Positions 5,792-50,142 of a DNA stretch of 64,000 bases are shown here, piece by piece. The translations under genes were made by a program, and so were the position numbers. Where the stretch lies: the IMG/VR virus record IMGVR_UViG_3300010351_000784, positions 30,475-94,474 of that record, one strand, 5' to 3'. Position 1 is the first letter of the stretch. Every line of letters starts with the position of its first letter. Under the pieces are notes generated by a model. The model saw only the letters and a list, made by a program, of their open reading frames with translations. It did no database searches and had not been told where the DNA came from. The stretch comes from a virus. Taxonomy: Duplodnaviria; Caudoviricetes.

Positions 5792-8581
5792 TTATTCTGT
5801 GTCTTCTTCTTTATTAGTGAAGGTTACTTCATTGTTTCCGCTGTTAATATTTATTGTAGTATTATCGAAGGTTGTTTCCCAACCAGCCCCCATACTCTCT
5901 TCAGTAAAGGTATAATCAATAACGTGTTCATTATTACTATAACCATTAAGAGGTAAGGTCAATGATTCGGACGTATCTTCACCAGGACAGTCAAATATAA
6001 ATGTGTCATCATAAACTACAAAACCTTCTGAGTCTACGCCATGAACATTGATGACAGCATCTCTTCTTAATCCAGAAGGAGTCGTATGAAGGTTCCTCCA
6101 ATTTTTTGTAAGAACGATAGTGAACTAAGGAGTAGCTTTATGAATCCAAGATATCACTTCGCCGCGGTACCAGCCTTTAACAATTTCTTTAGATTCGTCT
6201 ACTACCGCAACTGCGTTATCTTTTACAACTTCATTTTCGCATACAAGTTTATCCTAAGTGAAGTTGTATTCACAGCTATAAACTTCTGCATCAGGAGCTC
6301 CACCGAGCTCTTTTGCTACATCTATACAAGAAACGCTTATACCAAAATTTGTAAGCTCTCCATTTGTAAACTCAGGTGGGGTAATTATATCAAAAATAGT
6401 TCTTATTGCTGCAACATATGCTACACCGTTTAAACCTTCACTATCATCAGCAAAGTCGCTCTTAAAATAATAGCGTGGCGAACTTTCATAAACTCCCCAA
6501 GGATTATTCTGATATAATTCACCATTGATTCTTAAATTATTTCCGAGTTCTACTATAAGATTTCTGTTTGTACTATTTTTGTTAAAAGGAATATGCTCAA
6601 CTCTCTCTTGGTTTGAAACGTTTGGCTATGAAGCTGGATAAAGATTTGCAACTCCTTCTGCAACTTTTCTGTTATAGATAATTACGCCTGGGTATGAGAC
6701 TCTGGCATAATAATTTTCAAGATAAGCATTCTGCCTTACTTCAGGAATAATTACCAAAGTGCTTCTATTATAAACATCTTTAAGATATTTTAATTTATCC
6801 CATATTGCATTAAGCTGAGTAGTATTATTTCTTTGGAAATCGTCAAACTTAATATAAGGCTCTGAATAAAGACTATTGACAGGAATGGTAAGAACCATTA
6901 TATCATTTTCTCTAAGAGCCTGAGAAATCAAAGCAAAAGCTACCCAAAGATATAGAAGGTTCTCCCAAAGCTGCGCAAGTTCATCAAGCATACCATTAAA
7001 CAAATCGTTGATTGGAGAATCTTCATCAAAAAGGAATGAAAGAATTCCCGTAAGAACCTGTCCGATAACCCAGAAGTTTCGGTTTAAATCTTCAATTTCA
7101 ACTGTTCTTTCATATTCGGGCATTAAGAGTCTTATGTATTTATCAAAAAGCTTATGAGTAAATTGTAAGAATCGTTTGTCATTAAGTACTCGCTTAATTT
7201 TATCATTCGCTCTTACAGTTGAATAGTTATATGGAACTGTATAAGTATCTTCATTATGTATCTTAAGAGGAGTTATATCCCATAAATAAGGAATCATACC
7301 AACCTCTTCCTGAGCGGTTTCATCGTATAATGTTCCACGCAAAATTGCATAATAAAAATTCATAAGGTCATGATGAATGTTTGTAGAATTTGTTTCAACA
7401 ACATAAGGATGCTTCTTATCATCATATACATGTTCCCATTTATAAGTATGATGTAGATTTGGTTCATCTGTATATCCCCGTCCATTTGGGAAGTTAATGC
7501 CAAGACTTCTATAACCTTCTAACACATAAATCCACTCATGCATCATTACTGCTGCCAAAGGAATAACTGGATAATCATAACCATCACCATAAATTTCGCA
7601 GGGGTTATAGGTTTCTCCATTATATGTTCTTGAAATATTATCTCCTAACATTCCAAATGAAATATATCCAAAAGCATTATTTGTATAAGTACACATTGTT
7701 GTACCCATCTGCCCTTTGGCGTCTAATCCTTGGAATACAAAGAAATTGTCGTAGTGATAAGTTATATCATCAATAATCTCTGGCGGAATATTGTTAAGAA
7801 AAATTACATTTTCATGTTCGCCGCCAGGACCACTCATAACAATTGGATTATCTTCCGTATCATACTTTAGAATATCGTACTGTATAATAACATTATTATC
7901 ACTAAAATTTTCTACGCTTCTTTTGAAATTATCCGCTGCTTTTACAAGTATGTCTAAGTCCGTTTGTGAAAACTCGTAAACTTCTCCACCTCTTTCAACA
8001 TGAGTAAAGTAAACAAATGCAAAAGTATGAACAGGAGTTGCCGATTTCATTTTTAATTTATTATGAGAGGTATAAAAAGGAATAAGACCTTCCTTTTTCT
8101 GCTCGTAGGTTATCTCATGAGTATCTGATGAATTCCAAGGTATAACCCAAGGCTTAGTTTCATTAAAACTATTGCCGGCATTCGCTTTTAAGATATCATC
8201 AACAGTAATATTTGTACTGTCAATTTCGCCGTGGTCAATAAAATACTAACGATAAATAGTAAGAAGTCTTTGAAAACTTTCATTCCAGTGATAAGGAGGA
8301 CTTAGACAATCATCAAGAAAGCTATCAATTAAATCTGCATTATCATTTATATATTCAATTACACTTTCGACATTGCCAGGGAATATGTTCTATCTTATAC
8401 CAAAAACGCCGCCAGCTTTATCATTTTCGTTTTGGAGGTATTGAAGCAAACCATCCCAAAACAAATCTTGATGTTCTGCAAATGCTCCGAGCGCCACACC
8501 GCTAAAATTCTCAGCTGTTGTGCCATTCCTACCGGTGAGAAGCTCGTCCATTACTCCATCAAATTTCTAATAATTAGCCAC
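5792..8581 (-). CDS. Large putative structural protein, paralog C, with inserted zincin-like domain (~929 aa; start uncertain)
   Basis: Extends ORF 6626-8050 through TAGs to TAA at 5792. Shares the WNES, PWVIPW and MPEYERTVEIEDLNRNFWVI motifs; the insert contains HEWIY. Confidence 0.75.
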
Positions 8582-8891
8582 CTTTCTTTTCACCACCAGT
8601 AAAACGGTTTATAATTTCTTTAAACTGGTCAAAACCAAACATGGAAATGAAAGAAACCACAAAGCCGCCAAAGATTGCCATTATAATTGAAGTAACAGTA
8701 ATTGTTCCAAACACAAATGTATATACAAGAACAACAACAAATGAAACAATCATTGTAAGAGCTTTTGTTGGAAAAGATTTTGGAAGAACTGCTTTAAGCA
8801 CCTCAACGATAATCGCAGTAGCTGCTGCAAGAATTCCGACCAAACCTAATACTGAGCCGCCCAAAGTTGTTAATGCTCCCATTCGTCTCAC
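8574..8891 (-). CDS. Holin-like small membrane protein
   Basis: About 105 aa with three hydrophobic segments and a charged C-terminus (GFDQFKEII), close to the endolysin. Confidence 0.7.
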   Translation of the reverse strand: MRRMGALTTLGGSVLGLVGILAAATAIIVEVLKAVLPKSFPTKALTMIVSFVVVLVYTFVFGTITVTSIIMAIFGGFVVSFISMFGFDQFKEIINRFTGGEKKGG

Positions 8892-16829: not shown

Positions 16830-16971
16830 GCCGCCGAGTTAGACTCAGCGACATATACTAAAATAAATTAAATTAATTATTAAATAATATCAATAAATAT
16901 AATAACTTATTACAACCTCACTATTACACTAAGTATAAACTATTTATGTAGTTATTACGATGTTAAAATAT

Positions 16972-17100
16972 TTAATTCTTTTCTAATATTAATTCAACTT
17001 CTTCATGAGTTAGCCATTTGCCTTCTGCCTTTTTTACCCATTCCTCAGACCAAACTCCTTCTTTATAATACTTCTTAATTTTTTCAAACATTTTACTCAT
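16972..17100 (-). CDS. XkdX-like small protein (42 aa)
   Basis: MSKMFEKIKKYYKEGVWSEEWVKKAEGKWLTHEEVELIL fits the XkdX pattern (IK.YY..G.W...V...V...LT.EE...I). Confidence 0.75.
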   Translation of the reverse strand: MSKMFEKIKKYYKEGVWSEEWVKKAEGKWLTHEEVELILEKN

Positions 17101-17434
17101 TATCAATTCCTCCTATAAGGTCTTCACCATTAATCATCAAAAGATAATCAATAGTCGCATTTACCTTTTCAAGTGCGATTCTATATTCTCCACTTTTATC
17201 AATATTTTTAGTATAATCAGAAACAATATACCAAGTGTAATGTCTACCAATACTATCCATATCTTCTTTGATTAATCTTTCAATTTTACAAGACTCAGTA
17301 ACTTCTATATATTCATCCTTTAAAGTAAAAGTCTAATAATGACCAATAGGATACTTTGTTTTATCACCAATAGTAGAGAGAATAATAACATCATTACCCT
17401 CAAATTCTCCTCTTTTAAAACTATATTCTAACAT
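17093..17434 (-). CDS. Tail-fibre-associated (XkdW-like) protein (113 aa; TAG=Gln)
   Basis: MLEYSF...ATIDYLLMING; RBS GGAGG; lies upstream of the XkdX-like gene. Confidence 0.6.
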
Positions 17435-17579
17435 TTAATCGCCTCCTGTTATTGCTTACGATTTGCTTCATCATTCCATTTATCCAACTTGGAATATATC
17501 TTTTCGAAATAGAACGATGATTACACCATTTTAACTATCCTATTCGAGCAATTAATCCTGCCGCAAGCCAATGTACTAT
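17415..17579 (-). pseudogene. C-terminal remnant of a DGR reverse transcriptase
   Basis: Start-less frame IVHWLAAGLIARIG(TAG=Q)LKWCNHRSISKRYIPSWINGMMKQIVS resembles the Firmicutes DGR RT thumb motif (AAGLLSRLGQLKHCNS...Y); recognised from memory. Confidence 0.6.
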
Positions 17580-17585
17580 TTATAT

Positions 17586-17605
17586 TAACGTAAAAAATTA
17601 CGTTA
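17586..17605. promoter_or_regulatory. Hairpin (8-bp stem, 4-nt loop) just downstream of VR/IMH
   Basis: TAACGTAA-AAAA-TTACGTTA, 2 nt after the target gene stop codon. Confidence 0.55.
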
Positions 17606-17607
17606 TT

Positions 17608-19221
17608 TTAATTTGTTGAAGGTATCTTCTATAGTCGGACGCCGATGTTGAGGCCCTGGCCGACAGCCCTGAGGCTCCCGGACAGTAAGAACAAACCGCG
17701 GTACGGGTACGAGATATAGAGACCACCAACGCACAACACAACACCATTAACATTGAAGTGGCAGCTATCAGGTATTTGATTTTGACTACTTGCTGTATCA
17801 CCATTTCCAGGATACAACACCCAATCAAATCCACTAACATTTGACTAATCAAATTCCTAAATATAATTTGATACATTAGCTCTTCGTCCAACTAATACTG
17901 CACCTGACGCACTATAACTATCTGAATAATTCTCAAAATCTTCAAAACAATAGATACCTTCTCCAGTATTATTATTTTCATCAGGTCCAAAGGTAATTCC
18001 ATCGCACCAGTCACAAACATTACCCCAGGGGTCTTCAATATATCTATATTGAACACCAACCCCATAAGTTGTTTTTGAAGCCTACATAGTTCCAGTATGA
18101 TATGGCATAGTATCTGTAGAGCCAGTATTTTCTTTTGACTTATCATTACCACAGTTATAGCCAATCATTGACTATGTATCCCAGTTGGCAAATTCAACAA
18201 GATATAACATCCAAATTGTTATCCAAAGACTAAAATCAAGCTGATAATATCCGCTTCCTATTGCTGCCTAATTAGTTCTCGCTGTTGCTCTGGTAATACT
18301 CGCAATTGGAATTACACCACTTGTTGATTTATAGTTGCTATTAGAATGATAACGTCCAATGTAAACATAGTCTTGCTCGGGATATGAACCTCTTGCTCTA
18401 TGTGCAGGACTTACATTAAAGCCAGTTTTTGGAGCATCGGCAATCTAAATTGAGAATTTTGAATTTGTTTTTTCAATTTTATACCAGAATTTTGGAATTT
18501 TAACAACTTCATTCCCATCAACTGTTTCTCTTACCATTCCATTCCAAGGATAAAGATTATCAAATGGTGAGCCACAATCTTCAGCACTCATACCATTATT
18601 TACATATGGTACTGGATTAGTAAACTCCGCCGCGGCATCTGTTCTTGATAAAGTTTTGCCAGTTAGCCCCCATTCAACACCATAAACAACAACAAAAGTT
18701 AATTCAACATCATAAATTTTAGATGTTGTAAAGTTAATTATTTTACTAATGACTTTTCCATTTAAAGAAGCAGAGAAAGTCCATTCGCCACATGAAGGAA
18801 TTAACATCTTAAGGTGAGTCTATTCCATTGTGGCAGTAAGAATTATTGTTCCATTTGTTGCAGTTATTATTGCGCCACTATCCGCGATAATGTTTGCACT
18901 TGGATAAGTAATTGCTGCAAGTTCATCAATCGCTGCCTAAATATTAGTTGCTTCAAGATAAGAAATCTCAGATGCAGTAGTTGGAATTGTAGGTTTGTTT
19001 TTAATATAATCATCTTTGGAATTATCTGCCTAATTCCAATCAGATTGAATATTAACCATGTCAATGAGAGCATTTTCAACATCAGAAAAACTATCAAGCG
19101 TTTCTCCATCTTTGATAGCAGCAATCTCAGCTCTTGCAACTCTATCTTCTGATGCGCCTGCGCCTGCGCCTCCACCTCCACCTCCACCTATGAAAGGATT
19201 AAACATATTCATCATTCCCAT
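17608..19221 (-). CDS. DGR target protein copy 2 (tail fibre / receptor-binding protein with C-terminal CLec/FGE-like fold; 537 aa; TAG=Gln)
   Basis: Co-frame fragments; YRYIEDPWGNVCDWCDG and C-terminal GG....GLF.......IGVRLQKIP. Confidence 0.85.
17647..17763 (-). repeat. DGR variable repeat VR-a
   Basis: GC-rich 117-nt segment. It differs from VR-b at 37 nt, 36 of them at codon positions 1-2, and is followed by an identical 3' (IMH-like) tract. Confidence 0.85.
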
Positions 19222-19237
19222 TATATCACCTCTCAAA

Positions 19238-19279
19238 TTATGTAATAAAAGGTTCCCAGAGATATCCAATTCTTTTCAA
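19238..19279 (-). pseudogene. N-terminal remnant of a DGR reverse transcriptase
   Basis: TTG-start (M)KRIGYLWEPFIT right after the target gene stop; resembles the MKR.G.L(Y/W)E.I N-termini of DGR RTs; cut at the junction with copy 2. Confidence 0.55.
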
Positions 19280-19292
19280 TTTCTTCACTTCC

Positions 19293-20912
19293 TTAATTTG
19301 TTGAAGGTATCTTCTATAGTCGGACGCCGATGGCGTCGTTCTGGTAGGGAGCCGTGTAGTGCCCGCCCAGGCAGAACAAACCGTAGCTCGCGTACTGGCC
19401 ATAGCAACCACCAATGTACAACACAACACCATCAGCATTGAAGATGCTGCTATCAGGTACTTGATTTTGACTACTTGTTGTATCACCATTTCCAGGATAC
19501 AACACCCAATCAAATCCACTAACATTTGACTAATCAAAATCCTAAATATTATTTGATACATTAGCTCTTCGTCCAACTAATACTGCACCTGACGCACTAT
19601 AACTCTCTGAATAATTCTCAAAATCTTCAAAACAATAGATACCTTCTCCAGTATTATTATTTTCATCAGGTCCAAAGGTAATTCCATCGCACCAGTCACA
19701 AACATTACCCCAGGGGTCTTCAATATATCTATATTGAACACCAACCCTATAAGTTGTTTTTGAAGCCTACATAGTTCCAGTATGATATGGCATAGTATCT
19801 GTAGAGCCAGTTTTTTCCTTTGAAATGTTATTACCACAGTTATAGCCAATCATTGACTATGTATCCCAGTTGGCAAATTCAACAAGATATAACATCCAAA
19901 TTGTTATCCAAAGACTAAAATCGAGTTGATGATATCCGCTTCCTATGGCCGCCTAATTAGTTCTCGCTGTTGCTATGGTAATATTTGTAATCGGAACTAC
20001 ACCACTTGTTGATTTATAGTTGCTATTAGAATGATAACGTCCAATGTAAACATAGTCTTGCTCAGGATATGAGCCTCTTGCTCTGTGTGCAGGACTTATA
20101 TTAAAACCAGTCCTTGGAGCATCGGCAATCTGAATTGAAAGTTTTGAACTTGTTTTTTCAATTTTATACCAGAATTTTGGAATTTTAACAACTTCATTCC
20201 CATCAACTGTTTCTCTCGTCATTCCATTCCAAGGATAAAGATTATCAAATGGTGAACTACAATCTTTAGCACTCATACCATTGTTTACATATGGTACTGG
20301 ATTAGTAAACTCTGCCGCGGCACCTGTTCTTGATAAAGTTTGGCCAGTTAATCCCCATTCAACACCATAAACATTATCAAAAGTTAATTCAACATCATAA
20401 ATTTTAGATGTTGTAAAGTTAATTATTTTACTAATGACTTTTCCATTTAAAGAAGCAGAGAAAGTCCATTTACCACATGAAGGAATTAACATCTTAAGGG
20501 GAGTCTATTCCATTGTGGCAGTAAGAGTTATTGTTCCATTTGTTGCAGTTATTATTGCGCCACTATCCGCAGTAATGTTTATACTTGGATAAGTAATTGC
20601 TGCAAGTTCATCAATCGCTGCCTAAGTATTAGTTGCTTCAAGATGAGATATGGTATTATCATAAGAAATCTCAGATGCAGTAGTTGGAATTGTAGGTTTG
20701 TTTTTAATATAATCATCTTTGGAATTATCTGCCTAATTCCAATCAGATTGAATATTAACCATGTCAATGAGAGCATTTTCAACATCAGAAAAACTATCAA
20801 GCGTTTCTCCATCTTTGATAGCAGCAATCTCAGCTCTTGCAACTTCATCTTCTGATGCGCCTCCACCTCCACCTCCACCTATGAAAGGATTAAACATATT
20901 CATCATTCCCAT
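19293..20912 (-). CDS. DGR target protein copy 1 (539 aa; TAG=Gln)
   Basis: Near-duplicate of 17608-19221; RBS GAGGTGA; co-frame fragments 20733-20927, 19953-20492 and 19314-19505. Confidence 0.85.
19332..19448 (-). repeat. DGR variable repeat VR-b
   Basis: Counterpart of VR-a; NNC/NNG/NNT codons with fixed third positions. Confidence 0.85.
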
Positions 20913-20923
20913 TATATCACCTC

Positions 20924-21211
20924 TCAAATTATGTAATAGATGTTACCAGTGAAAGCGGTTTCAAATTTGAGACTCCAAATATTCATACCTCTTTCTCCAG
21001 TAAAAGGAGTCACAAAGTGACCTACTGCTGGTATTTCCATTTCTTCATTGGAGTCATTAAGATAAAACTTGGTACTAGCAGTTCCTTCAAATCCCACGAA
21101 TCTGAGAGAAGAACCCATACTAATATTATCGTTTTCCCTTACTGACGCCTTGATTAATGGTACGCAATTTTCCATTGCTCCAGCTGTGCATTTCCACATT
21201 CTGTATTCCAT
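20924..21211 (-). CDS. Hypothetical protein (95 aa)
   Basis: Clean ORF with RBS GGAGG. Confidence 0.7.
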   Translation of the reverse strand: MEYRMWKCTAGAMENCVPLIKASVRENDNISMGSSLRFVGFEGTASTKFYLNDSNEEMEIPAVGHFVTPFTGERGMNIWSLKFETAFTGNIYYII

Positions 21212-21223
21212 ACCATCGCCTCC

Positions 21224-21484
21224 TTAAATAATTTCTTCACCATATTGGTTAAAAATACTCTTGACTCTACTCATTTGTTCAGGATTATCAATTAATATTT
21301 TAATTGTATCTCCCTATAAGAAGCGTCCTGATAATATTCCTATTAAAGATTTACCATTCACTCTTCTGTCATTTGCTCTATATAAAAAAACACTTGAATT
21401 TATTTCTTTTAATGAGAATATTAAATTCGCAGCGTTTCTTTTCGAAAGATTTTGTGTGAGATAATATGTACAATCCATCATCAT
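21224..21484 (-). CDS. HPr/Crh-like protein lacking His15 (~85 aa; TAG=Gln)
   Basis: RVNGKSLIGILSGRFL(TAG=Q)GDTIKI matches the HPr Ser46 signature; NLSKRNAA replaces GIHARPA. Confidence 0.65.
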
Positions 21485-21499
21485 CAACCCCCAATTATT

Positions 21500-21572
21500 A
21501 TAATAGCATGACGCCGCCTAAAAGTCAAGCAATTAACAAAATCTTGACTTTTTGATAATTTTATGATATAAT
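21500..21572. promoter_or_regulatory. Back-to-back SigA promoters at the transcription divergence point
   Basis: Minus strand: TTGACT (21523-28), 17 nt, TG-n-TATTAT. Plus strand: TTGACT (21544-49), 17 nt, TATAAT (21567-72). Confidence 0.75.
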
Positions 21573-45756: not shown

Positions 45757-47781
45757 ATGGCAATTGATTTATTGGCACTTGAACCTCAGACAATAAGCAG
45801 AAATCTTAAAGGTAAGTACGCAATGTTTTACGGCTTGCCGGGTGTAGGTAAGACAAGTCTTGCCGCACAGTTCCCAAAGGTTCTTATTGCAGGGTTAATT
45901 TAATAGCTCCCTTATATAGTAATATATATTGAATAATGTGGTTAATTGCTGGGAAACCTAAGTCTTAAAAGATATGGCAATCAGCAGCCAAGCCGCCCAA
46001 TCAGCGGAAGGTTCAACGACTATTTAATTAAGTAGTAGTAATACGAAATGCCACACTTCATTAGTTGCTTATATTTTTACAACAGGAGGTGAAAAGAATG
46101 CGAATGATTGATGATAAAGAAGAGCAAGAAATTTGTAAAGATTACTTATCTGGACTATCTATGACAAATATTGCAAAAATGCGACATTGCACACAACCAA
46201 GAATTAAAAATATATTGGTTAAAAATGATATTCCACTTCGTGTAAGAAAAATAAATGTTAATTTAAAGGAAGATTATTTTACAAATATTGATACACCTAA
46301 TAAAGCATATTTTTTGGGGTTAATTTTTACAGATGGGTCAGTGACAGAGGAAAAAGACAAACAATCTCAATTACGCTTAGAACTTAAGGCTTCTGATGTT
46401 GCTTTGCTTGAAAAGTATCGAGAAGAACTTGGAATTACATCAAAGCTTATCTATTCAAAAAGAGGAAATACAGAAAGTTTTCTAAGCACAGTTCGAAGCG
46501 ATAAGATAGTAAAAGATTTAAATAAATACGGAGTTGTAAAAAATAAAACCTATTTAACAAACGTTTTACCGAAAGTTCCAGCAATTTTAGAAAAGGATTT
46601 TCTAAGAGGTTTAATTGATGGCGATGGAAGTATTTATCCTAATCAGAACTATTATAGAGTTAATTTCACTTCTCATTCAATAAACATTTGTAATGATTTT
46701 CTCTTATTATGCGAAAAAGTATCGGGAATGGAAATTACCAATAAGCCTACACAAAATGGCAAAAATTATCGTGTAACTCTTGCCAAAAAGGCTTTAGTAA
46801 AGAAGTTGATTACTTCTTGCTATAAAGATGCAGAAATGTATCTTCCTCGAAAATATATAATTGCAACGAATATATTTGAGGTTAAAAATGAAGAAGATAT
46901 AGTCTAGTCCGACTCTTAAATGAGTGTTAAAGTATGTTGAAAAACACGGTATTAACGTTGAGATGGGCACTAATGCTCTTAATAAGGTATATGTTCAGCC
47001 TGTTAAGGGTTGGAATGACTGGAAAACTGTGGTTGGACAGCTCATTCGTAAGCAAGAGTTGAAGGACAAGTTTGAAAGTATCGCAATTGATACTGTCGAT
47101 TCCGCATGGGATTTGTGCGTAAGGTACATTTGCGGTCAGGAAGGTGTCGAAAAGCTTGCCGATATCCCTTGGGGCGCAGGTTATGACATGGCTAAAAAGG
47201 AATTCCAGTCAACTTTCAGAGACTTAACTTTCGCTGGTTATGGTCTTATCTTTATTTCACACTCTACTGAAAAGACTCTTAAGGACGAGGAAGGAGAAGA
47301 ATATCAGCAGATTGCTCCTGCTTTGCCGCAGAGACCTTACGATATTGTAAACAAGATGGTTGACGTTATTGGTTACATTCGTGAGATTAAGGACGAAGCA
47401 TCCGGCGAAAGAAAAAGATTTATTTTCTTCAGAGGCGACGACAGATTCTTCGCAAAGTCTCGTTTCAAGTATATTACTCCTCGTGTTGAATTTAGCTACG
47501 AGAATATCGTAAATGCTATCTTTGATGCTATTGATGAGGAGATTAAGCATTCCGGTGGCGAAGCTTCAGATGAAGTTAATCCTTATGTTGTAAAGACATT
47601 CGATGATTTAATCAATGAAGCTAAGGAGCTTTGGGATGCGGTTGTTCAGAACGAAAAGACAAAGGAAGCATCTGAAATACTCGAAAACGAATTCGGAAAA
47701 CCCACAAAATTTTCTGAAATTCTTCCAGAGCAGATTGATAGTCTTCAGAATGTTCTGATTAGAATTAAAGAAATACTTTAA
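45757..47781 (+). CDS. AAA (Sak4-like) ATPase, 2 exons (45757-45895, 46958-47781)
   Basis: GLPGVGKT; splicing gives IAGFEMGTNAL; IAIDT; FISH. Confidence 0.8.
45896..46957 (+). mobile_element. Group I intron in the AAA ATPase gene
   Basis: AATTGCTGGGAA, AATCAGCAGCCAAG, GGTTCAACGACTA and AAGATATAGTCT motifs; terminal G. Confidence 0.85.
46098..46919 (+). CDS. Intron-encoded LAGLIDADG endonuclease
   Basis: YFLGLIFTDG and FLRGLIDGDG; reads through TAG to TAA at 46919, the same position as the stop in its PhoH-intron paralog. Confidence 0.85.
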
Positions 47782-47830: not shown

Positions 47831-50142
47831 TTGAGAAAATTGAACGAAAAGGTAAAGATTTTGGACACAAATGTTCTTTTGGACTACCCACAAATTGTTA
47901 CTAGCCCTAAGGAATATTGGGTTATTGCAATGGTAACTCTAAAGGAAATTGACGGACTCAAACTTAACAGGAATCCCGAAATTTCACAGAAGGCTCGTAA
48001 GGCGGCAGTTTATATTGCCAAGAATATGAACAACATTGAATGGGATTTTACTCGTGATTATTCAGAAGACCCCGATGGCGTACTTCTTGAAATTGCGAAA
48101 AAGAGAAACGCAACTATTGTTACAAACGATATTTCCTTTAAGGTAAGATGTGAAGTTAATAATGTTGACGTTGAAGGCTACAGCTGGAAGGACGATTACT
48201 GCGGTATTGTTTATATGAATGTTAATGATATGAGTCTCGACGAGTATAATGAAATGCTTGCAGACCTTAGGGAAAATGGTCATTACGAAACTGATAACTA
48301 TAACTTCAGCATAAATGAATATCTTATCATTCCGCCGCCATATGAAGACGCTTCTTTCGGTAAGGAAAGTATATTCAAGTATGATGGCGCACGTTTTCAC
48401 TTAATTAAAGGCAAAGCAATTAAGAATAATTGGGTCGGCGAGATTTATCCAAGGAATCCTGAACAGATTTGTCTTATGAATGCTTTGCTTAGCAATGTTC
48501 CTATCATTTATGCCGGTGGGCATTTCGGGACGGGTTAATTGATAGCTCCTTTATACAGTAATGTATATCGAATAATGCGGTTAATTGCTGGGAAGCCTAA
48601 GTTTATAGGAGTATAAATATGGTAATCAGCAGCCAAGCTAGTTTAGCCAACTAGAAGGTTCAACGACTAAAATAATAATAATCTTCGGATGAAAAACCGC
48701 ACTTCATTAAAATAGCGCAATCAAAAATAAGGAGGTGAATATATGAGACAATTTAATAAAAAAATTCAAGATGAAATATGTTTTAAGTATGATAGAGAGG
48801 GAGAAACATTAACTTTTCTTGCTCAAACATATCATTGTAGAATTGAAGCAATAAGAAATGTTTTATTATCTAATGGTATTAAAATAAGAAGAAGAGGTTA
48901 GAAAACAAATAGAACAATAAAAGAAAATTATTTTGAAACAATAGATACAGAAAAGAAAGCTTATTTTTTAGGATTATTTTTTGCAGATGGAAATATTAGT
49001 TTAGATAAAAGGCGTTCTCCGTTAATACGAATTTCATTAAAAATATCCGATAAAAATATTTTAGAAGAGTTTAGAAATGAATTAAAAGTAAATTCTAAAC
49101 TTTTATATGATAAACGAAATAAAAAAGAAAGTGCAATATTGAGTTTTAGAAGTGAAAAAATGGCAAATGATTTATCTAAATATGGTATTGTTCCAGATAA
49201 AACATATGTCACAAAACATCTCCCAATTGTTCCTCAAAAACTATTAAAACATTTTTTACGAGGTTTAATAGATGGAGACGGAAGTATTTATCAGTCAAAA
49301 AAAGGACAATGGTTCATTGACTTATGTTCATATCATGAATCAATTTGTGCTGATTTTCAAAATTTATGTCTATCTTTTCTCAATGATAAAAATAAAACAA
49401 AAATAGCAAATTATGGAACAGCATATCATATTAAATTTGGGAAAAAATCACAAGTAAAACAGTTGGCAACTGTACTTTACAAAGATAGTAATGTCTATCT
49501 TACTCGAAAATATGAAAAAGCGCAACAAATTTTCGAGAATAATAATGAAGAAGATATAGTCTACTCCGACCATTAAATTGGTGTTAAAGTACTTCGAAAG
49601 AAGCGGTATAAAGGAAAACTTTCCTTACTCATAACTATGCAATTGGACAGCTTGAGAAAGACAAGATTAAGAAAATCATTTATGTTCCTAATAACTCTTA
49701 CACCCAGAACACTATGGAGCTTGGCGCGCTGCCTGGCGACTTAATGGAAAAAATTCTTCCTTCAATTGGACCTCTTGTTGATTTGGTTGGTATTGACCAG
49801 ATAAATAGATGGATTTCAGAAGATAAGTTGGAGATTGTCCCTGTCGCCTATATCAGAGGACGTAATTTTGACGATTCTATTGTTCTTGTAAGTGAAGCTG
49901 AAAATCTTACTGAGGAACATATTAAACTATTACTTGCTCGTTGTGGTAAAAACACAAAGATTTTCTTTGATGGAGATATTCATCAGGCAGATAGTGCTAT
50001 CTTCAAGGATAGAAATGGTTTGAAGCTATTACTTAAACTTCATGAAAGTCTTGAATTTGCTCCACTGTTTTCTACTGTTCAGCTTATCAGAATTGAAAGA
50101 AGTATTGTAGCTGCTGCTGCCGACTTTCTTGATAATATTTAA
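47831..50142 (+). CDS. phoH: PIN-PhoH protein, 2 exons (47831-48535, 49615-50142)
   Basis: LDTNVLL PIN domain; splicing restores the Walker A GHFGTG|KT; LGALPG, RGRNF, EAEN and GDIHQAD motifs. Confidence 0.85.
48536..49614 (+). mobile_element. Group I intron in phoH
   Basis: Core nearly identical to the AAA-gene intron. Confidence 0.85.
48743..49576 (+). CDS. Intron-encoded LAGLIDADG endonuclease (TAG=Gln)
   Basis: YFLGLFFADG and FLRGLIDGDG. Confidence 0.8.

Follow-up and report, generated by a model that had tools for sequence, protein, structure and literature searches.

How a phage could lose a diversity-generating retroelement and keep two copies of its target: a probable wreck in a tail-gene operon

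Why would a phage carry the same tail gene twice in a row, with differently diversified ends and with pieces of a reverse transcriptase (RT) between and behind the copies? The question is posed by a 64,000-nucleotide stretch (hereafter the window) of IMG/VR virus record IMGVR_UViG_3300010351_000784, a record of 94,474 nt with a CheckV completeness estimate of 57%. An earlier note, made from the letters alone, had read the locus as a diversity-generating retroelement (DGR) whose RT gene was swapped for a second copy of its own target gene. The elements that it listed, namely two target copies with their variable regions (VRs), two RT stubs, a hairpin and the downstream genes, are all present on the minus strand under genetic code 15, and every feature of the locus given below lies on that strand. 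Comparison with relatives makes it very probable that the locus is what one duplication and two deletions have left of a DGR by which the C terminus of a tail fibre was once hypermutated.

Target copy 1 (T1; 19293 to 20912) encodes 539 amino acids with nine in-frame TAG codons read as Gln, and target copy 2 (T2; 17608 to 19221) encodes 537 with ten. T1 is a tail protein with 92.8% nucleotide identity to the target of contig L002, the relative against which most comparisons were made. T2 has its own native ribosome-binding site (RBS) and ATG, and TATTACATAATTTGAGAGG...ATG stands before both copies. The target has a single family match, phrog_5302 'tail protein' (E = 4e-41), and no match in sequence searches of Pfam and PDB. 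The relatives' target is 775 amino acids long (L002, 6001 to 8328), with an extra block of ~240 amino acids after the shared N terminus that matches phrog_18608 and phrog_10588 'tail protein'; the block is missing from T1, T2 and contig L006. T1 and T2 are separated by about 60 substitutions, one 12-nt indel and one 18-nt indel outside the VR (synonymous divergence, dS, 0.077; nonsynonymous divergence, dN, 0.037; dN/dS, 0.49), so the duplication either is not recent or joined two circulating alleles. Both copies share alleles with relatives, in different segments, and one pair of corresponding codons consists of CAG and TAG. An origin of T2 as a retro-copy, with gene-wide adenine bias, was rejected: when polarised with the relatives, A is the starting base in 13 of the ~38 T2-specific changes, a share close to base composition.

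The VR of T1 (VR-b; about 19319 to 19460) aligns with the template repeat (TR) of L002 at 8478 to 8618, and that of T2 (VR-a) lies at about 17634 to 17775. Both end in the GC-rich sequence ATCGGCGTCCGAC, which resembles an initiation of mutagenic homing (IMH) site. Two nucleotides after the T2 stop codon is a hairpin, TAACGTAA-TTTT-TTACGTTA (17586 to 17605), with an 8-bp stem and a 4-nt loop (z = -3.8 versus shuffled sequences), and a hairpin behind the VR is conserved in contigs L002, L003 and L004. No hairpin follows VR-b. Copy 2 carries both target-site signals, the GC-rich IMH at the 3' end of the VR and the hairpin downstream; the hairpin of T1 was lost through junction J1, described below. 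The DGR of Bordetella phage BPP-1, reportedly described by Liu in 2002 and Doulatov in 2004, is said to combine a VR in mtd with a TR and the RT gene brt. The window shares with it a phage tail-fibre gene, a C-terminal VR, a GC-rich IMH-like end and an 8-bp/4-nt hairpin just downstream. In BPP-1 the hairpin is required for efficient homing and has, as published, a GC-rich stem and a GRNA loop (Guo et al. 2011, PMC3240598), whereas the stem in the window is AT-rich and the loop is TTTT.

What the locus would have looked like before its breakdown can be read from L002, L003 and L004, three independent, mutually colinear contigs of other metagenomes. Each carries, in order, the upstream gene U, the target with its VR, the hairpin, a spacer, a 141-nt TR, a leader, the RT gene and the MLEYSF gene. 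The earlier note had predicted that relatives would have an intact RT gene directly after the target, ending just before the MLEYSF gene. An intact RT is found in all three contigs, and again in a fourth relative, and it does end at MLEYSF, but about 425 nt (hairpin, spacer, TR and leader) separate it from the target. The fourth relative comes from a bovine-gut run (X4), in which one contig holds 879 nt of RT core lying exactly between the two stubs of the window, with a TR further on. The relatives' RT has 356 residues, begins LKRIGYL(W/R)EPFIS (MKRVGKL.. or MKREGNLW.. in more distant members) and ends ..RLAAGLIARIGQLKWCNHYTISEKYIPNWIDRTMKQIVSSSRRRLNVRIQL, overlapping the MLEYSF gene. It matches Pfam RVT_1 with 45.3 bits (cut-off 29.6) and phrog_1423 'reverse transcriptase' with E = 4.5e-63; its best PDB match is the 328-residue RT 8ub7 (E = 4.7e-19), with the GIxIGxxxSQxFAN motif aligned. 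On these matches the enzyme is a DGR-type RT.

Two pieces of this RT gene are left in the window. The first, 56 nt of leader and N-terminal coding sequence (19243 to 19298), reads ..IKEVKK and then LKRIGYLWEPFI, and continues to a T and a stop codon (19238 to 19240) in sequence derived from U. Its DNA is identical to L003 at 56 of 56 positions and 96% identical to L002 8735 to 8790. Within it a 13-codon frame (19241 to 19279), starting with TTG 13 nt after the T1 stop, reads LKRIGYLWEPFIT before its stop codon and matches the L002 RT at 12 of 13 residues. The RT-derived stretch does not start at the start codon of this frame, as had been supposed; it begins in the RT leader. The second piece is C-terminal, about 51 codons plus stop (17415 to 17569), and holds the RBS and start of the MLEYSF gene. 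It falls in a start-less frame of 54 codons (17418 to 17579, stop at 17415 to 17417) that reads ..HWLAAGLIARIGQLKWCNHRSISKRYI.., and 39 of 49 residues (80%) are identical to residues 307 to 355 of the L002 RT. Both stubs are homologous to the relatives' DGR RT, just as the earlier note had proposed. Nucleotide identity of the C-terminal stub to the relatives is 85 to 87%, similar to that of the flanking genes; it was rejected as a means of dating the RT loss because a divergence of 13 to 15% equals that of its neighbours.

The cassette of the relatives works, or did so until very recently. L002 and L004, from different metagenomes, have 13 differences in the VR, 12 of them at TR adenines, and no other in the more than 7 kb upstream; since they differ only at VR sites, the intact cassette was active very recently. 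All TR/VR mismatches of two further contigs, L011 (15/15) and L012 (16/16), are at TR adenines. The RTs of L002 (8754 to 9824), L003, L004, L011, L012 and L013 have RYMDN(L/F)T in place of the YMDD of canonical DGR RTs, including bRT (8ub7); the more distant RTs of L014 and L015 have the canonical YMDD. Elements of this YMDN subclade, to which the lost RT belonged, look active, judging by the VR patterns of L002/L004 and L011/L012. The TR of L003 (2114 to 2269) has lost ~10 adenines from its 5' half (AA>GG, A>G, CA>TG), several positions matching VR sequences, and its 3' half equals the L002 TR. The pattern suggests that VR-like or mutagenised sequence has replaced part of this TR, in which case DGRs of this phage group would erode by a second route as well. 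Like BPP-1, the relatives have an adenine-specific TR/VR pair, and 8ub7 is the closest solved structure to their RT. Unlike BPP-1, with the YMDD of bRT, they have YMDN and no detected Avd homologue: a search for Avd (PF05635) in G000, G001 and G002 gave no match, and there is no ORF between target and RT in the relatives (HRDC was not searched for). A blastn search of INPHARED phages, at the 'distant' setting, with the 4.4-kb region returned no match.

The same mutagenesis appears to have left its mark on both copies in the window. VR-a and VR-b differ at 38 positions, 26 of which are adenines in the relatives' TR, and 21 of the 33 mismatches between VR-b and the L002 TR are likewise at TR adenines. 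Sites variable among VR-a, VR-b and the L002 VR are distributed 22/22/2 over codon positions 1, 2 and 3, and dN/dS inside the VR is 28. With their differences in codon positions 1 and 2, VR-a and VR-b appear to be DGR products. Between 12 and 16 VR mismatches are at non-adenine bases, as counted against the relatives' TR, the only reference available; either the lost TR differed from that of the relatives or ordinary mutations have since accumulated.

How did the cassette come apart? BLAST of the window against L002 mapped three junctions to the base. At J1 (19293 to 19298; shared bases AATTAA), L002 position 8328 is joined to 8735, connecting the T1 stop codon to the RT leader with the loss of ~407 nt (hairpin, spacer, TR and part of the leader). 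At J2 (19243 to 19247), position 8790 is joined to 5974, so that RT codon 13 runs back into the 3' end of U, as expected of a tandem-duplication joint; one side of it is formed by the last codons and stop of U (TATTACATAATTTGA), whose homologue in the relatives has the C terminus ..AIYYII. The bases shared here are TATTA, five nucleotides and not the TATTACA that had been suggested. At J3 (17564 to 17569), 8372 is joined to 9670 through an imperfect 6- to 8-nt match, so that a point 16 nt beyond the hairpin meets RT codon ~305, and about 1.3 kb (spacer, TR, leader and RT core) is deleted. Microhomology thus spans 5 to 8 nt across all three. J1 and J3 each removed a TR copy, so the layout is not that of one swap of the RT gene for a second target; a tandem-duplication joint and two separate deletions are seen instead.

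From an ancestral layout like that of the close relatives (U, target with VR, hairpin, TR, RT, MLEYSF), three illegitimate, microhomology-mediated events would suffice. A tandem duplication at TATTA would have copied the segment from the 3' end of U through the target to the 5' end of the RT gene, joining RT codon 13 to U; a deletion at AATTAA would have taken the hairpin, TR and part of the leader from behind copy 1; and a deletion at J3 would have taken from behind copy 2 the TR and leader along with the RT up to residue ~305. Between them the two deletions would have eliminated each copy of the TR and the one complete RT. The three events would have left one late operon with two intact, co-transcribed tail-fibre genes, whose tips bear different relics of adenine mutagenesis, in an element that, having no template or RT in cis, should be unable to diversify either copy itself. 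Presumably both fibres are made, giving the phage two fixed host specificities, and loss of the DGR may have been tolerated or even favoured once useful variants existed.

The three junctions might also stem from a single complex event, a serial template switch of the type of fork stalling and template switching or microhomology-mediated break-induced replication (FoSTeS/MMBIR) between the genomes of two co-infecting strains. Short microhomology at every joint would fit such an event; so would the dS of 0.077 and two indels between T1 and T2 and the relatives' alleles found in different segments of each, as expected of two circulating alleles. Nor was an intermediate with J1, J2 or J3 alone found: exact-match scans of IMG/VR for the three junctions hit no other record (the window's own record may be masked). 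Missing intermediates are weak evidence when they come from exact-match scans of one collection. Stepwise decay fits the observations too, since a TR and RT surviving the duplication could have diversified both VRs independently, and the data favour no order of events. We consider a single event unlikely and keep the stepwise history. The deletions start 2 nt before (J1) and 16 nt after (J3) the hairpin, which is a weak hint (roughly p = 0.1 by our own estimate) that the DGR's own target structure was a fragile site; a deletion leaving the target ORF whole has only about 150 nt in which to start in any case, and for this reason the proximity says little.

All of this presupposes that the tandem copies exist. 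An ENA contig of 15.9 kb, L090, is gapless and colinear with the window from 6 kb upstream via U, T1, J1, the N-terminal stub and J2 into T2, and L104, from the same sample, covers T2, hairpin, J3, C-terminal stub and MLEYSF gene with one mismatch. J3 also lies within eight further contigs (ENA, JGI and Logan) of other samples; contigs L099 to L106 and Logan contigs of runs X1 and X2 cross it without mismatch, and J1 and J2 are both spanned by one Logan contig of X3. In run X2, depth is 19.2 at VR-a, 18.5 at VR-b, 19 to 26 in the flanks and about 34 to 36 in sequence shared by the copies, that is, about twice the depth of each VR, as expected for two copies in one genome. The Logan comparison used contigs and not raw reads, so that rare VR variants are invisible in it, and its gaps in cover (e.g., 19586 to 19839 in X1 to X3) reflect cross-placement of near-identical copies and have no meaning.

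Several points nevertheless weigh against reading the locus as a DGR wreck with two fixed fibres, and the first concern the copies themselves. Short-read assemblies cannot phase them, and copy number and allele content rest on depth and junctions rather than on single molecules. T1 of L090 (6300 to 7919) carries T2 alleles over ~840 nt (window 19539 to 20377), and L097 joins U to an apparent T1/T2 hybrid. Possible causes of such mixing are gene conversion, a collapse to one copy and mixed paths in the assembler. The 12-nt GGCGCAGGCGCA insert of T2 is missing from the Logan contigs of X2 and X3. Mixed alleles in metagenomic short-read assemblies are what one would see if the tandem arrangement were a chimera of two co-existing strains with one target allele each. 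We find this barely credible: J2 has only 5 shared bases and J1 only 6, far below an assembler's k-mer, so De Bruijn assemblers could not have invented the joints; these were recovered again in ENA (SPAdes), JGI and Logan assemblies made independently from different samples; and the X2 depth is about single at each VR and double in shared sequence. The duplication claimed in the earlier note is upheld, each of the three junctions being spanned in independent assemblies of several samples.

A further point against the wreck reading concerns the machinery. With a record 57% complete, an RT or TR elsewhere in the genome is excluded only by a relative's synteny and not directly. Searching the whole 94-kb record for RVT_1 gave no match and left only the RT stubs, and an ungapped TR scan of both strands of the whole contig, in which adenine mismatches counted as matches, found only the two VRs. 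Loss of the RT core from the locus, and of the TR that had been thought possibly lost with it, is borne out by these scans. G001, a 122-kb relative syntenic at 80 to 98% identity, extends ~83 kb beyond the window end and has no second RT. By this synteny, which is short of proof, the missing part of the genome is unlikely to hold one. Having neither RT nor TR, the two defining features of a DGR, the locus is a DGR derivative and not a functional member. The identity of the target adds a third reservation: that it is a receptor-binding tail-fibre protein with its VR in a C-type-lectin fold is putative.

Are the two VRs frozen, then? VR-b is identical in every assembly seen (the window, L090 and the Logan contigs of three runs), and VR-a is identical in at least seven independent contigs from several samples, as the 'frozen' DGR of the earlier note would have it. 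The exception, and the last of the points against fixed fibres, is L101, a 28-kb JGI contig that has J3 and differs from VR-a at 11 sites, with 9 amino acid changes, compared with 3 differences in its other 6.8 kb. A fully frozen VR does not predict this variant, which may reflect diversification in trans. One of the 11 differences is outside the TR-homologous stretch; of the 10 that can be scored, 5 are at adenines of the relatives' TR, and two are at conserved TR positions other than adenine, with a base in the variant that is not that of the TR. As VR-a and the variant agree in almost every diversified codon, they are not separated by a full round of retrohoming. The differences may have arisen by recombination, by patchy conversion in trans or through ordinary mutation coupled with strong selection. 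In run X1 a VR-a contig has a depth of 4.5 against 10.6 in the flank, with 11 differences, and might represent a second VR-a allele.

If the DGR does work in trans, cDNA would come from an RT and TR in the unsequenced part of the genome or in a co-infecting, DGR-intact relative, with copy 2 as the target and copy 1 locked. Copy 2 keeps the IMH-like end and the kind of hairpin on which efficient homing in BPP-1 depends (PMC3240598), the polymorphism of L101 is concentrated in VR-a, and the hairpin-less VR-b does not vary in the assemblies seen. The DGR-intact L002 and L003, moreover, are in assemblies with neighbouring accession numbers, which suggests the same sample series. Full retrohoming, though, would re-randomise every adenine site, and L101 keeps nearly all diversified codons of VR-a; its differences are at TR adenines in only half of the scorable cases, with two at conserved non-adenine positions without the TR base; VR-a is identical in at least seven other contigs; and neither the 94 kb of this genome nor the 122 kb of the syntenic relative contains an RT. 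We regard diversification in trans as doubtful, and with the same reserve we mention its corollary, that the RT-less phage could be a DGR 'free-rider' in which copy 2 is rewritten, perhaps patchily, by relatives' cDNA while copy 1 is kept as a locked, safe allele. If this is true, the phage would have one receptor-binding gene that is fixed and one that can evolve, a built-in split that would explain why VR polymorphism in the RT-less lineage is seen only in VR-a. On balance the VRs are likely frozen.

Compared with BPP-1, the window has lost its RT and TR, with stubs of 56 nt and about 155 nt left of the former, and its target is tandemly duplicated. Duplication as such is familiar: DGRs with several VRs have been ascribed to target-gene duplication (Schillinger et al. 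2012, PMC3521204), and about 13% of DGR cassettes have two targets (PMC10743442). The window is like the multi-VR DGRs (PMC3521204) in its two paralogous targets, its independently diversified VRs and their origin by gene duplication. It is unlike them in that a working RT and TR there serve all VRs, whereas here the duplication joint is inside the RT gene and both TRs are gone. Decay is known too. In Pseudogulbenkiania sp. NH8B distal targets stand beside a strongly mutated RT (Schillinger et al. 2012, PMC3521204), likewise a duplicated DGR with one decayed RT; that case is in a bacterial chromosome with a second, intact RT, while the window has no detectable RT and shows clean deletions, not point mutations. 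Among cyanobacteria, all3226 of Nostoc PCC 7120 retains remnant TR-VR homology without an RT, and Anabaena sp. 90 has a degraded cassette (Vallota-Eastman et al. 2020, PMC7517822); the idea that DGR machinery is discarded once a good variant exists comes from the same work. There, as here, variable-protein genes are left without diversification machinery, but those remnants are dispersed paralogues in cellular genomes with breakpoints that were not reconstructed, and the present case is a phage with tandem copies and every breakpoint mapped. In the literature covered, which is incomplete, we found DGR remnants in bacteria and no phage with a duplication joint in the RT gene and both TRs deleted. 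Phages Mu and P1 have invertible G and C segments, from which a site-specific invertase expresses one or the other tail-fibre end. By analogy, the window would likewise offer two alternative receptor-binding ends on the same fibre scaffold within one phage genome, with the difference that its two genes are both complete and in one operon.

Because DGR surveys start from the RT, RT-less descendants go unseen, and the exit of a phage from the hypermutating state is hardly documented. Here such an exit is retraced to the single base by comparison with relatives from similar habitats whose cassettes are intact and active. This provides a natural matched pair, DGR-on and DGR-off, bearing on the cost of hypermutation, on target duplication as its substitute and on the rate of ordinary mutation in a former VR. 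The hairpin kept in one copy only is a natural test of the cis requirements for retrohoming. How DGRs work is not changed by these findings.

The target copies sit in what may be a single operon, from an HPr-like gene through U, T1, T2 and MLEYSF to XkdX. It is bracketed by a promoter-like site at its head (TTGACT-17-TATTAT with TG, 21500 to 21528; 10 of 12 positions in a consensus scan) and a terminator-like hairpin at its end (16830 to 16852, from a pattern scan); both are pattern matches. The first gene (21224 to 21532) matches the HPr protein of the phosphotransferase system (PTS; PF00381, E = 3e-8), which is unusual in a phage late operon, and a homologue occupies the equivalent place in L002. 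U (20924 to 21211) encodes 95 amino acids, and the MLEYSF gene (17093 to 17434), which in the relatives directly follows and overlaps the RT end, encodes 113; Pfam and PHROGs searches of these two and of a 1150-residue neighbour gave no match. Of the XkdW/XkdX-like pair named in the earlier note, the XkdX-family gene (16975 to 17100, 42 amino acids) is confirmed by PF09693 (E = 1.4e-6, 28.7 bits, cut-off 23.5), and the XkdW-like assignment of MLEYSF finds no support in Pfam or PHROGs.

The minus-strand late genes are open only under code 15 (TAG as Gln). Recoded TAG is heavy in them, with 9 to 14 codons per large ORF, and rare in the plus-strand early genes. An ARAGORN scan of window positions 1 to 64000 found no tRNA gene and hence no suppressor tRNA in the window. 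Two Rfam group I introns lie on the plus strand (45887 to 46122 and 48526 to 48747). A repeat family at 29 to 34 kb, 39.1 kb, 53.8 kb, 57.2 to 58 kb and 63.1 kb shares similar RBSs and N-terminal coding starts and carries conserved RNA-like blocks, ..GCTAACGRGG..GAGACATAGGTATGG... Together the introns and repeats suggest many insertions of introns or homing endonucleases in the early genes.

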